DNA of 64,000 bases from Lama glama. Its lineage: Eukaryota. Of this stretch, positions 3,440 to 49,240 are shown in pieces. The stretch is taken from contig CM052816.1 in assembly GCA_028534125.1 (NCBI GenBank), positions 43,216,001-43,280,000 of the forward strand, written 5' to 3'. Positions within the stretch are counted from its first letter, which is position 1. The number at the start of each line of letters is the position of its first letter. The notes below the pieces were generated by a model. That model did not search any database and had not been told where the DNA came from. It saw only the letters and a program-made list of their open reading frames with translations. Position numbers and translations under genes: made by a program.

Positions 3440-4920
3440 ATTCATTCACTCATTCAGCAAACGTTTACTGAGCAGCGTATCACTCAGGGTTCTGTTATGT
3501 TCCAGGCTTTGTAACACCTACATGCATGCCCTTACGTACCTGGTTAGAAAGACAGAGACATAAAATAAATTATTACTGATAAATGTTACAGGAAAAACAT
3601 ATATCAAGTACAAGGGGTGGACCACAGAAGCAGTAACTAACTCCACCTGGGGGAAGGCCTCACCATAAAGTGTCCTCTAAACTGCGACTTAAAGGTGACT
3701 GGAATTTCAGCACACTTCTTTATTCAGGAAATGTCTCCTGAGCCAAGCACAGTTGTTGGCACTGTAGACACAGCAGTGAACTAAACAAAGCACCTGCTCT
3801 CCTGGCAGTGGCAAAACAGACAATAAACAGATAAAAATTTTTATGTTAGGTGGTGATACCTGCTAATATCAAAAAATAAAGTAGGTTAATAAAAGGAACA
3901 GAGAGTGACAAGGGTGGTCAGGGAAGGCCTCTGTATTGAGATGACAGGAACAGAATCTGAATGATTTGAGAGGATGAGACCAACAAGCAGGGGAAGCCAT
4001 TTCTGATAGAAGGAGCAACATGGAGAAAATTGTAATAGCCATGAAAAGCGTGGCATCTTTAGTGCAAAGTGAAGTATTGTCACGGAGCATGTGGTAAGAT
4101 GGCTTGCAGGGTTTGGGAGAGTGTGGTAGATGAGGCTGGGAAAGGAAGAGAGAGGGGCCAGATGGCAAAAACCATGGTGTTCCCCACTCAGGAATTTGAA
4201 TGCCCACCTTGTTGACTGGGGAAAAAGGGGCTAAGATTTTGAGAAGAAAAAAAAATTAAGAGGAAAAGGACATGGTTAGATTTTTGTTTCGTTTGGTTGA
4301 GTTAGGTGAGGTTTGGTTTGGTTTGGGGAAAATTACCTCTAGCACATGTATGAAAATGAATTTGGAAGGAGAAGCAGAAGAAGCCAATGGTAAGGTTATT
4401 CTGATGCAAGTGAGAAATTATGGCCTAATTTAGAACAGTTAAGATGAGGCTGTAGAGGAAGTGGTAGAGCTCAGCTGGTTTAGGAGACCCACTATGTAAG
4501 ATTTGATGCCCTCCGGAGTATGGGAAAGGTCAAGAACAATTCCTGGATTTCAGTTTGGGTGACTGAGTGGGTGATAATGCCGTTAACCAGCTCAGGGAGC
4601 CCCAGAGGAGAGGCAGGTTTAGAATTGCACATAATGAATTTGATTTGTGGCAATGGGAAATACAGACTGGAAATGTACAGAGAAGTCAGGGCTGAAATAC
4701 TGATTTGGCTGTTACCAGCATTTCAAGGAAATTTAAAACAGGAGCAAAAAGAAAAGTCAGCATTATCAGATACTGCAGAGAAGTTTAATAGGATGAAGAT
4801 TTTTAAAAGGCCACCAGATTGGACAACTGGAAGGTCACTGATGACTTCATCAAGACCAATTCCAGTAGATGTGGGTAGGGTAAATCTCACCAGGGTTGAG
4901 TTGGAGTGTGAAGAGTAAGA
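3440..4920 (-). mobile_element. Degraded L2 LINE fragments
   Basis: Reverse L2 tail (ttcattcactcattcagcaaacgtttactgagc) followed by purine-rich L2-like antisense sequence. Boundaries approximate. Confidence 0.6.
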
Positions 4921-5874
4921 GGCTGGGATTGTCCAGCCAAGATCACCGTCTCCTCTTTTCCAAAGCTCCTCCTTGGAAGCTTTGAACCTGAAGTCTAATC
5001 TTCTCTTCTTCCTCCTTTCTTGACTTTCTCCACCCAGGGCCTAGGACTGGCTGCCTGAGCTAAGGACATGATGGGGGAACAAATACTCTAAGATCCTTGG
5101 GTCTCTGGTGGGACAGGAGCCAGGGGTAGGGAGCCTGATGTTGGAATCAAGTGTTGCAAGGAGCGTCCTCAATGAGGAACAGTAGGTTAGGCCCATCCAG
5201 AGACCTGTCTCCAGAGGGGAGAAAGATGAAACAGATATCGGTCTTTGTTTTATGTGGAAACTCTGAGCCAGGAAGCTGAAGTAGGATGGTGGGTAACAAA
5301 GGACTTGAAGGATTGGTGGGGGAAACATAGAATTAATCAGAAAACTTGGCTCCAGTGAGAAAGTGGAATCTGGCAAGGTGTAGGGGTGAGGGTAGAATCT
5401 GACAGTAAACTGATGTTAACTAGAAATTCAGGTGGGGCGGCTTAGGTTTCCTAGGGCACAGGGACTGAAGATGTGCAGTGGAGTACTGTTGCCAGTACTT
5501 GTGACCGTAAAGATAGCAGTAAGGGGAGAGTTAATGAATTGAGGGGTAGCATAAAAATGCTGCTTGGCATTAAAAAAAACAACAAACAAAAAAAAACTGG
5601 CATAAAGATATTTAACAAATATCTATGAAGCCAAATGTGATCATTCAGATTATGTGGAGGATAGAGATTAGATACCACTGTTCTGAAGGGCTGAAAGTAA
5701 ATGCCTGGGTTGCCTTCAGGGAGAGGATGGAGGCAGGGACTAAGAGATCCCAGACAGCTTGAAGGTACAAAGCCCAGAAGGGAGATTTACACCTTGGAGG
5801 GAGTTGGAAGCAAGGTTCAGGGTAGGAGACCTCCTCCCTTAACCCTGGGGACCCAAGGAGTTACCAGTAGGGTC

Positions 5875-6042
5875 CTACCAGATTTCCCCACCACCGCAGC
5901 TTTGGCGCGTTTCTCCCGCCTGCACCGCCATCTCCGCCCTCTGGGGGGCGGGGCTCGAGGGCGAGGCTGGTGGCTGGCTGTTCTGATGCCTCGAGAACAA
6001 TCAGTTCCTACCAGACTCCCTGCCCGGGAGCGGTCTTACCCC
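5875..6042 (+). promoter_or_regulatory. GC/CpG-rich proximal promoter and 5'UTR of POU5F2, with Sp/KLF GC box GGGGCGGGGC at 5945-5954
   Basis: Local CpG enrichment in an otherwise CpG-poor window. Canonical GC box ~90-100 bp upstream of the ATG. Resembles the recalled OCT4 proximal promoter and 5'UTR. Confidence 0.7.
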
Positions 6043-7056
6043 ATGGCCGGACACAGGCCCGCAAACTTCCCCCTGCCAGGCGGTGGTGGGGGCGGGCCCA
6101 GAGGGCCCGTACCAGTGCGGGTTGACACTCAGATCTGGCTGAGAGCCCAGGAGGCCCCCGGCAGGCTGATGGCCCTGCCCAGGGTCGGGCCGAGAATCTA
6201 TCCAGGCCCTGAGGTGTGGGGGTTGCCCCCTGTTCCCCCGGCGTACGAATTCCAGGGCGGGATGGTACGAGCCCATCCCGTACCTTGCGGGCCCCGGGTC
6301 GGAGCTGGCGAGGCGGGGACCTGGTTCCCAGACCCCTCCGAGGGCACCTTCCCCGGGCCCTGCATCGTCGTGCGGTGCATCCCAAGGCTGGCGCTGCCAG
6401 AGGATGTCTCAGCCGTGAAGAAAGAGGTGGAGCAGCTGGCCAAGGATCTGAGGCAGAAGAGGATGACCCTAGGGTACTCGCAGGCCGACGTGGGGTTCGC
6501 CTTGGGGGTTCTCTTTGGAAAGGTGCTTAGCCAGACGACCATCTGCCGCTTCGAATCCCAGCAGCTGAGCCTTGCCAACATGTGGAAGCTGCGACCGCTC
6601 CTGAAAATGTGGCTGGAGCAAGTGGACGCCGAGAACCTTCTGGGCTTATGCAAAATGAAGATGATCCTGCAGCAGGCTCGGAAGCAGAGACAAGCAAGCA
6701 GGGAGAGGCGCATCGGAAACAACCTGGAGAAACTCTTCCTGCAGTGCCCGAAGCCCACACCCCAGCAGATCTGCCACATCGCTGAGCAGCTCCGGCTGCA
6801 GAAGGACCTGGTCCGAGTTTGGTTCTATAACCGGAGCAAGATGGGCGGTTGGCCAAGCAATGATTTCTCCCCACTGGAGGAGGTGGAGGCAGCCGGGCCT
6901 CCTTTCCCAGGGGGACCGGTGTGCTTTCCCCTGACATCGGGACTCCATTTTGGTTCCCCCCACTATGCGGGACCCTACATTACACCTTTGTACTCCCCTG
7001 CCCCTTTCCCTGCAGGAGGAGCCGTCCTCTCTGAGAGACCCCGGCCACCGCCCTGA
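6043..7056 (+). CDS. POU5F2: POU domain class 5 transcription factor 2 (SPRM1), intronless OCT4-derived retrogene, 337 aa
   Basis: Within ORF 5701..7056. Starts MAGHRP at cccATGg (6043), like OCT4 MAGHL and human POU5F2 MAGHRPS. POU-specific domain KEVEQLAKDLRQKRMTLGYSQADVGFALGVLFGKVLSQTTICRFESQQLSLANMWKLRPLL. POU homeodomain ending VRVWFYNRSK, the POU5F2-type variant of WFCNRRQK. Single exon. Confidence 0.95.
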   Translation: MAGHRPANFPLPGGGGGGPRGPVPVRVDTQIWLRAQEAPGRLMALPRVGPRIYPGPEVWGLPPVPPAYEFQGGMVRAHPVPCGPRVGAGEAGTWFPDPSEGTFPGPCIVVRCIPRLALPEDVSAVKKEVEQLAKDLRQKRMTLGYSQADVGFALGVLFGKVLSQTTICRFESQQLSLANMWKLRPLLKMWLEQVDAENLLGLCKMKMILQQARKQRQASRERRIGNNLEKLFLQCPKPTPQQICHIAEQLRLQKDLVRVWFYNRSKMGGWPSNDFSPLEEVEAAGPPFPGGPVCFPLTSGLHFGSPHYAGPYITPLYSPAPFPAGGAVLSERPRPPP

Positions 7057-7270
7057 ACCTCCCCAGGCTTTCCAGCTGAAGGGCCTGCCTCTCTGGGGAG
7101 GGCCAAGCTGGGGAAACCGGTCCCTGGGGCTCATTTCAGGGCTTTTAGCGTTAAGTTCTCCATTCTCTGTCTAAAGAAGTTAAGCATACAGACGGAAGGG
7201 AGAGGGGAGTTGTTCAGGAAAATTTGGGGTTGGAAGTTGAAGTTTGTTGCTGCTTTGTGTTTTTCCCTTT
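7057..7270 (+). other. POU5F2 3'UTR containing the out-of-frame ancestral C-terminus and an OCT4-like 3'UTR remnant
   Basis: TGAagGGCCTGCC..., CAGGGCTTTT...TTAAGTTCTCCATTC and GGAAGTTGAAGTT blocks are collinear with the recalled OCT4 3'UTR (TGAGGTGCCTGCC..., CAGGGTTTTT...TTAAGTTCTTCATTC, GGAAGGTGAAGTT). Confidence 0.7.
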
Positions 7271-9504
7271 GTTTCTCCTTAGCATTGGCTTTAAGGTACA
7301 TTATAATACATAGATGGTTTTGGATATTTTGTTTCTGTTGTTTTTATTAATAGAAAATTAATTGTGTCTGTTATTCCTGTGATTATCTATAAACATAGGG
7401 GTTTTTTTTCTTACGAACACAGTACTGAGTGAAAAACTCAAGCCACAGAAGACTATTTCAGTATATCATTTCTGTCACAACCAAGCAGAACTTTGTGTAA
7501 ACACAAGCAGAGTCTAGGATAATCATTGCCTCCAGGGGAAGGTTGGAGGGTGGGGTAGGAAAAGAGTACACAGAGCCTACCCAGAGTCCCCGCTGAAACA
7601 CAGAAATTTGCTTGTTCTCCCCAGTTTCTTGAAAGATGTGTTTTTTTCCTAATTCACTTTGTCATTTAGAGTACCCCAGCTTTAGTGGGTAGGGGTCTCA
7701 CCTTATGCAGTTTCACAAGTTTATCTTCTGTCCCTCCAGTCACTGCGTTTTAAATCCCTTTGCTCCTGCGATTGGGAAACTACAGCAGTGGCTCAGCCCA
7801 GCTCCAGCTTACTTCTCTGGTTTTCAGCTCCGTTTGGTTTATTCCCTGGAAATTTCCGTTACTTTCTTTGAGCTCAGGTATGCTTTTCAGAGGATATTTG
7901 TGATAGTTGCTCCAACACTCCCTTGTGGCTTTTGCAGTGGTACATCTTAAGTCACTTTTCCAATCTCTTCTGTGAAATTGGTCTTTTCCAGTTTTCTCCT
8001 TCTTCATTGGTCAGTTTGGGTCGTAATATACTAACTAACTGGAACTCATTAATCCCTCTGTTTTCATATCTGCTGTCATGTAATATTTATGGTTTTTAAT
8101 TCTGTCATCTATATTATATCTGCGTTTATGTATCCTTTTTGCTTACTAATCTTGTCAATTTTTTCTCTTTTTTCCTTAGTCTTAGACAAAGAATTTATCT
8201 TTGTAAGTATCTTTGTAGATATTTTCAAAGAACAAGCTTTTTTTTATCTTTATCCTATTTCACTACTGTTTTTGTTAACTAATTAATTTTGGCTTTTATT
8301 TTTATTAATTGCTTTTGTCTAGTTTCTTCTGTTTTCTTCTAATGTATGTTTTTCCCTCTTGTCAGTGTCTGAAGATAGAGCACTGAAGATACATGTAGGT
8401 TAGTGAAAATGAGCCAGACTTTAGAGTTGCTCGGCTTTAAATTCAGTAAGTGACTAATGATTTACTCTTGGACTGTCCCACTGAAAGTCATACAGCACCA
8501 ACCCCAGTCTCCCTTTAGACAACCCTTCTGAAAAGCCTTGGAAGGGAGATGTTGCTGCAGAGGGTCAGGCAGTGTTTAATGCCAGGATGAACAACTGTGA
8601 TTGTGCTGCGAACATTCACCTCCTAAAAGCTGTGAAGAGTCTCGGCTCAGGCTGCTGCTTGAATTCTGCAGCTCCTGCAGATTTGGAGAAATCATAACTG
8701 GCTCTCCATCTCGAGGACCCAGTCTCTGCACCTGCACGGCTGCCCCTCTGCTTAGACGAGTACTGTTGTCTGTCACTCAGCAGCCTTCACATAATTTAAA
8801 ATGAGATTGTTTTATAACTGGCCCTCTTGACTGTGAAAAGAGAAAAAAACCTTTATTTAAAGCGTTTCAGATTACTCAAAGATTTAAGATGAAGTGAGTA
8901 AAAAAGGTTAATTATTGGATCCCTCAAAACTGAAAGGGAACTACTTTTAGAGTTGGGAGAAAACCAAGAGTGTGATGTCAGTGGTGAACAGTGTCCAATA
9001 TACAGAGATCAAATTAATTTTTGATTATTTTAAGTATTATTTAATATTTTGTTATTATAGTAATAAGACAGTTTATTATAATACATACATTATATAAAAT
9101 CATAAAAGTAAAATTAATACTAAATGAAAACAATTATGTTAAATAAATATTACTATTTAACATAAGAAATTGAGTAAGATACATCACTTCACCAACAACA
9201 ATATGGGTACCCTTAGTGAGAAAATTTCAGTGGAATAGTAAAGGCAGATAGCAAAAACTAGTGCAAAATCTTTATATTTGCAAGATTTCCCCCAACCTCA
9301 ATTAAAAACATTAAAAATAAATTCCAAAAAGATTTTTAAAAAACCCGATAAACATAAATTCCAACCACTGGCTCAATAGGGTCTTTGCCATCATTTTAAA
9401 AACATTTCTTTAGCAAATGTTTTCTTTATCTTTTATTTCCTTTAGACAAGGCAAGTATTCTTTTTTCCTTTTGAAAAAACATTTGTAGAATTTAATAATT
9501 ATGA

Positions 9505-49121: not shown

Positions 49122-49240
49122 GGTTTGTTCATTTGTTTTTTTGTTGTATGTGTGTGTTTTTAATGGAGGTACTGGGGATTGAACCTAGGACCTCGTGCGT
49201 GCTGGGCATGCGCTCTGCCACTGAGCTACACCCTTCCCCC
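49122..49240 (-). mobile_element. tRNA-Ala-derived SINE, Vic-1 type (camelid)
   Basis: Reverse complement GGGAAGGGTGTAGCTCAGTGGCAGAGCGCATGCCCAGCACGCACGAGGTCCTAGGTTCAATCCCCAGTACCTCCA plus A/AC-rich tail. Pol III A box (TAGCTCAGTGG) and B box (GGTTCAATCC). Approximate TSD aaggc(g/t)tgg at ~49110 and ~49241. Confidence 0.85.

Follow-up and report, generated by a model that had tools for sequence, protein, structure and literature searches.

Sequence comparison points to homology between the DNA upstream of POU5F2 and the promoter region of its parent gene, POU5F1 (OCT4)

As judged by sequence alignment, approximately 300 bases of DNA upstream of the retrogene POU5F2 are homologous to the promoter region of POU5F1 (OCT4), the gene from which it was copied. 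The reading we prefer, to which we assign a probability of roughly 65%, is that the RNA reverse-transcribed would have been a spliced POU5F1 transcript starting at about position -360 (counted from the ATG) or further upstream, and that the resulting copy would use the inherited GC-box core as a testis promoter.

The POU5F2 (SPRM1) coding sequence occupies positions 6043..7056 on the plus strand of the window, by which is meant the whole 64,000-nucleotide stretch of Lama glama DNA under analysis. Its continuous, intronless reading frame encodes a 337-aa protein with a POU-specific domain and a homeodomain (Pfam PF00157 and PF00046), which is identical to Vicugna pacos POU5F2 at 334/337 positions and to three Camelus records at 325/337, and which groups with named POU5F2 proteins. 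The alignment to POU5F1, a five-exon gene (PMC2410140), is uninterrupted, and is free of gaps across the POU and homeodomain exons. The parent's introns are thus precisely absent, in agreement with an earlier note on this DNA that had described POU5F2 as a retrocopy of OCT4. In this comparison the end of POU5F1 exon 1 was read off read-through proteins, and the other three exon junctions were set at their presumed positions. Known as a POU5 paralog, POU5F2 is expressed in the pachytene spermatocytes of the mouse (PMC2211742, PMC3024949, PMC5778473), where its level is high (PMC5778473). Eight sequencing runs recorded as RNA contain part of the window, though they do not count here as evidence of expression.

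All 11 POU5F2 rows in the tree, two of them afrotherian, fall into one clade (support 100/100), and the gene is absent from the marsupials examined in PMC9937046. In addition, POU5F2 keeps the QQARK form, which is present in afrotherian and bilby POU5F1 and missing from six boreoeutherian POU5F1 rows. Taken together, these three observations suggest that POU5F2 likely arose by retroposition on the eutherian stem. The residue that marks the QQARK form, located in the POU linker and retained in all POU5F2 rows, offers a usable dating mark.

As for the genomic setting, gene models in a whale and two pinnipeds (P0057, P0064-P0066) join ARB2A/FAM172A exons to the body of POU5F2, which would fit nesting on the same strand and perhaps chimeric splicing. 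A tblastn search with two of the fusion models as queries detected no ARB2A exon in the 64-kb window, so that the placement of POU5F2 inside an ARB2A/FAM172A intron is presumed from these models. Elsewhere in the window, an A-rich tract at 5565-5603, with TGGCAT on both sides, looks like a minor insertion bounded by a target-site duplication; a weak tRNA match on the minus strand (49164-49235, 33.9 bits, Rfam RF00005) is likely the head of a tRNA-derived SINE; and a G-skewed stretch at 4500-4920, which holds a 132-aa ORF, resembles an old L2 repeat.

The upstream DNA of the parent is known through database proteins that are read-throughs of it, and these were converted into codon-degenerate DNA profiles and aligned to the window. 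Peptide P0150 carries a 155-aa extension that leads in frame into OCT4A exon 1 and continues into intron 1, and it therefore derives from an intron-bearing parent locus. Since the parent is seen as one-frame translations, its third codon positions are mostly unknown; the parent sequence compared reaches to about -520 from the ATG. Eleven parent peptides were profile-tested, while eleven other short extensions (17-31 aa), P0149, P0258 and P0259 were left out, and P0260 was employed inside the stack only. The eleven are ORF-selected and are not independent of one another, because six were found by their likeness to P0150, and the scores of P0247 and P0251 take in coding bases past the ATG. Scoring followed a stationary model, to which a cheaper long-gap term was added after a 25-nt gap was seen, and the result stands under both. 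Searches with POU5F1 protein in viral contigs, prokaryote genomes, metagenomes, plasmids and phages did not find the POU5F1 locus; the 11 records returned from plasmids are chance matches (best E 0.06).

P0150 aligns collinearly over parent positions -357..-86 with 5742-5977 of the window, at 44.9 bits and with 88/128 codon-fixed bases identical. Shuffled DNA yields 17.2±2.1 bits, and the observed score is reached in none of 300 DNA shuffles and none of 100 peptide shuffles; the best scores elsewhere in the window are 21.0 on the plus strand and 22.2 on the minus strand. The alignment is stable in 9/9 parameter sets (36-52 bits, with shuffle maxima of 21-26) and also stands under simple gap costs (35.0 bits, 0/200 shuffles). 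For seven of the eleven peptides (P0150, P0208, P0247, P0250, P0251, P0252 and P0255) no shuffle reaches the score, P0105 (7/300) and P0248 (6/150) are marginal, and P0147 (64/200) and P0145 (148/200), of 30-31 aa and covering only the 5' UTR side, are not significant. P0247, which is read in another frame than P0150, extends from 5742 across the ATG to 6097 at 63.3 bits, part of which is coding. The upstream site was also matched by tblastn at an E value of 7e-7, in a partly different register, and no upstream match was reported by BLASTP of two extended proteins (P0002 against P0150).

The POU5F1 5' UTR measures 71 nt in the vole, the mouse start lying 23 nt nearer the ATG (PMC2410140), and the rabbit minimal promoter extends to -221 (PMC2751759). 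The whole of 5742-5977 therefore corresponds to parent DNA, about 300 nt long, that lies above the usual OCT4 start, and the minimal promoter is covered in its entirety. The earlier note had proposed that similarity goes above the usual start and through the Sp1 GC box, and this is borne out by an alignment that is collinear and withstands shuffling. The range it had given, 5875..6042, overlaps the homology and starts too far downstream, since the similarity begins near 5730-5742, about 130 bases further 5'. Similarity limited to a generic GC box, named in the same note as the outcome that would speak against it, was not observed: the block at 5742-5898, which holds no GC box, reaches 31.2 bits with P0150 by itself (59/92 fixed bases, 0/300 shuffles), and the homology is therefore not confined to that element. 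The GC-box block alone scores 27.4 bits with the same peptide (0/300), and when the GC box is planted in shuffled flanks the observed score is reached in 1/1000 trials for P0150, 1/1000 for P0208 and 6/1000 for P0105.

Several parts can be distinguished within the upstream region, all on the plus strand. The distal block (5742..5905), homologous to POU5F1 from about -357 to -192 and devoid of a GC box, falls for the most part outside the range given in the earlier note and is defined by the P0150 alignment and by a four-peptide profile; the distal part of P0208 alone is marginal (15/300). It is followed by a C-rich tract (5906..5943), just 5' of the GC box, that is homologous to the POU5F1 minimal promoter by its identity at fixed bases, which amounts to 13/16 for P0150, 15/20 for P0247, 16/20 for P0250, 13/17 for P0208, while the four further peptides that were binned range from 9/14 to 14/19. 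The Sp1/Sp3 GC box, GGGGGCGGGG at 5944..5953, is identical to the published motif of the OCT4 minimal promoter; it is the only exact copy in the 64 kb, and none of 100 shuffles contains one. It lies at -99..-90 in POU5F2 versus about -120..-110 in the parent, the published positions being -126/-117 in the vole (PMC2410140) and -120/-110 in the rabbit (PMC2751759). The remaining motifs quoted in the earlier note are likewise present, with CCACCACC at 5888-5895, GTTTCTCCC at 5909-5917, and the ATG at 6043. Further downstream, 5958..5969 holds a putative remnant of the OCT4 DR0 hormone-response element, the site of GCNF, LRH-1 and SF-1, with 9/12 bases matching and a changed core. The last part (5978..6042) corresponds to the parent's start site and 5' UTR in the alignment of P0247, which implies a deletion of approximately 21 nt behind the DR0 in POU5F2. 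On this 5' UTR side P0150 is not significant (275/300 shuffles), and P0247 spans the region collinearly with 23/31 fixed bases.

An in-frame upstream ATG opens a 114-aa extension of the protein (5701..6042, plus strand), annotated in Camelus models, that is probably no more than promoter DNA which happens to be open. The extension is open both in the window and in Camelus, although for about ten codons surrounding the GC box the two are read in different frames, which implies a pair of small indels that offset each other. N-terminal extensions in other mammals employ other frames and other starts, and because the frame is not shared its openness is probably due to chance. The window also carries a 4-nt insertion near 5971-5978 that is absent from rodent and bat orthologs, and a 15-nt direct repeat (5873-5887 and 6006-6020, 13/15 identical, 133 nt apart), both copies of which are conserved in ape or rodent orthologs.

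Read-through peptides of POU5F2 orthologs were compared with the window at codon-fixed bases, in bins chosen after the data had been seen and with rodent rows that are related to one another. Peromyscus agrees with the window at 20/20 fixed bases in the GC-box block, 5944-5977. The corresponding figure is 14/20 for 5906-5943; it is 49/76 for 5742-5905 (Fisher p 0.0006 against the GC-box block) and 129/159 for the N-terminal CDS (p 0.028). The GC-box block is matched at 19/20, 17/18 and 18/18 by further rodents and at 18/19 by a bat; adjacent to it, at 5978-6018, 16/17 fixed bases are identical in three rodent orthologs, Peromyscus included. In apes the block displays no excess conservation (30/36 versus 90/117, p 0.49; 13/15, with a short deletion at the DR0 site). 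By these counts, the GC-box block is better kept than its flanks in rodents and the bat.

The DR0 site differs from the published element by three mismatches, and an intact consensus is absent. A DR0-like match is not significant in itself (41 in the window versus 57.7 expected), and the site is identified by its place in the alignment. Its core is read as V-K-A or R-S-R-L in parent peptides, as G/D-E-A/L in rodent and bat POU5F2, and as R-A-R-L in camels; the V-K or S-R reading is kept in the parent peptides and occurs in none of the POU5F2 orthologs seen. As far as these readings go, the conserved state of POU5F2 is one of an intact GC box and a changed nuclear-receptor core. Adult germ cells express GCNF, which acts through the DR0 as a repressor of OCT4 (PMC4861434), and the sites of LRH-1 and SF-1 coincide with it (OCT4 promoter papers); loss of the DR0 could thus have freed POU5F2 from GCNF.

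Whether the inherited DNA serves as a promoter bears on the first alternative, according to which the upstream region does derive from the parent and is largely a passenger, expression being driven by permissive testis chromatin, by new elements or by ARB2A/FAM172A as the host gene, and the block that is conserved being 5' UTR or a newly shaped element. The OCT4 minimal promoter by itself is very weak in rabbit reporters (PMC2751759) and does not rise above control in pig reporters (OCT4 promoter papers), so that inheritance alone may not explain the expression of POU5F2. The changed DR0, the lack of excess conservation in apes and the predicted ARB2A-POU5F2 fusion models in three mammals point in the same direction, as does the finding that about 86% of expressed retrocopies have new promoters (PMC4772013). 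Against this stand the exact GC box, which occupies the homologous position and has 17/18 to 20/20 fixed bases kept in four rodent peptides and 18/19 in the bat, and the CpG content, which is 0-1 per 100 bases before 5901 and rises there to 9. We regard this alternative as unlikely.

A second alternative concerns the manner of copying, and depends on where the parent-derived DNA ends. Its 5' edge is placed at 5730..5745 (plus strand; in the parent, some 357 to 370 nt before the ATG) on the basis of alignment starts, which are 5742 for P0150, P0247 and P0250 and 5730 for P0252, and of an anchored extension. When the adjoining parent DNA was profiled from four peptides and extended leftward from 5741, the score was 0 bits, whereas the same anchored method yielded 24.5 bits (0/300) on the proven distal block, and simulated homologous blocks (200 per setting) reached medians of 17.5-50.1 bits, with 0-3% at or below 0.5 bits. 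The Peromyscus ortholog aligns on to 5671, and the flank is therefore shared among orthologs, yet it is not parent-like; a collinear match further 5', at 5680-5723, is non-significant (82/300). Such an edge could also be produced by a large indel at this junction. On the 3' side, 7072..7263 (plus strand) is homologous to the POU5F1 3' UTR, as seen with the C-terminal read-through of a POU5F1-like lemur model (P0088; 32.6 bits, 67/113, 0/300), of which the last 57 nt remain unaligned. No AATAAA or ATTAAA occurs in 7057-9141, that is, for 2 kb past the stop, and the 3' end of POU5F2 may thus use a variant signal.

With these edges in view, one may consider a duplication of POU5F1-locus DNA whose four introns were later removed by recombination with cDNA, or a cDNA that recombined or switched template with the parent locus before insertion. 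Either route would supply promoter DNA without calling for an upstream start, and a comparison of 5660-5745 with 7260-7480 revealed neither a poly(A) remnant nor a target-site duplication, although decay of both is expected at the age of POU5F2; moreover, the parent flanks were compared only to about -520 and within the 3' UTR. Nevertheless, homology fades near -360, where simulations indicate good power, and again within the 3' UTR, and two rare events would be needed while a single-step precedent exists, which makes this route distinctly improbable in our estimation. A chance likeness between two promoters, both GC-rich and sharing a generic Sp1 box, for which the non-significant DR0-like match, the two short peptides that fail and the two marginal ones might be adduced, is hardly credible in light of the GC-free block, the planted-box trials and a collinear register common to several peptides in different frames.

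We therefore return to inheritance of the promoter through an RNA. The proposed series of events would begin with a POU5F1 transcript starting at or above about -360, which would be spliced, reverse-transcribed and inserted on the eutherian stem; the 5' edge would correspond either to the upstream start or to a point of truncation. The earlier note's suggestion of a retrocopied RNA with an upstream start is consistent with a bounded tract on an intronless copy, and is qualified by this double meaning of the edge at -360. Its further suggestion, that the inherited DNA explains how the copy became an expressed gene, is made less certain by the weak OCT4 minimal promoter and the altered DR0, and the host gene or new elements may have contributed. 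CR2 starts near -950 in the pig (OCT4 promoter papers PMC2410140, PMC2751759, PMC6434273, PMC4861434), and since homology fades near 5730-5745 the OCT4 enhancers, from about -950, were likely not copied; having left them behind, the copy would lack expression in pluripotent cells. The GC-box core would likely serve as the testis promoter of POU5F2, with the change in DR0 granting freedom from GCNF in germ cells. Read-through RNAs from upstream promoters into POU5F1 have been described in human cells (PMC6441874, PMC6557835); they start from a human-specific LTR 16 kb away, and therefore demonstrate feasibility only.

A bolder version, which we advance as speculation, holds that a germ-line OCT4 transcript of stem eutherians, starting approximately 300 bases above the present start, might have been fossilised as POU5F2, with the Sp1 core kept, the enhancers lost and changes in the GCNF/LRH-1 site fixed before the boreoeutherian split, so that a pluripotency promoter might have become a spermatocyte promoter by few substitutions. 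If the preferred reading is correct, the 5' edge of the POU5F2 homology predicts an upstream OCT4 transcript, and POU5F2 would represent an unusually old and unusually long case of a retrogene that keeps its parent's promoter, a promoter that ranks among the most studied of all mammalian ones. The POU5F1/POU5F2 pair would then constitute a natural experiment, in which the same GC box is combined with an altered nuclear-receptor site, no enhancers and a different cell type.

Inheritance of promoters by retrocopies is a known mechanism, of which POU5F2 appears to be a case not named in the literature searched; no paper on the origin of its promoter was found there, subscription papers, including the original Sprm-1 ones, being outside its scope. 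Carelli et al. 2016 (PMC4772013) attribute parental promoter inheritance to approximately 3% of the retrocopies that are expressed (6 in human, 7 in mouse), on the grounds, as for POU5F2, that the sequence found upstream of the copy can be aligned with the parental locus. Their cases have dS values of 0.08-0.39 and, as the authors point out, highly diverged ones may be missed, whereas POU5F2 predates the afrotherian split; it is absent from the main text, and Table S4 of that paper could list it. A parallel is also offered by the retrogenes that Okamura and Nakai 2008 (PMC2386082) place in category I, such as PABPC3 from PABPC1, which account for 17/29 pairs and which, like POU5F2, are intronless expressed copies with upstream DNA that can be aligned to the core promoter of the parent, a likeness put down to an upstream start site. 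CpG islands and scattered starts are features of all 17 parents in this category, whereas OCT4 is tightly regulated and enhancer-dependent, and the starts in those cases were mapped, whereas POU5F2 is likened to them by sequence alignment; neither POU5F2 nor POU5F1 figures in the main text of that paper. With respect to the POU5F1 minimal promoter and CR1 (PMC2410140, PMC2751759, PMC6434273, PMC4861434), POU5F2 differs in its changed DR0 core, in the stretch deleted behind it and in that CR2-CR4 are not seen in the copied tract, while the C-rich tract, the GC box and the DR0 position follow one another in the same order and spacing in both genes.
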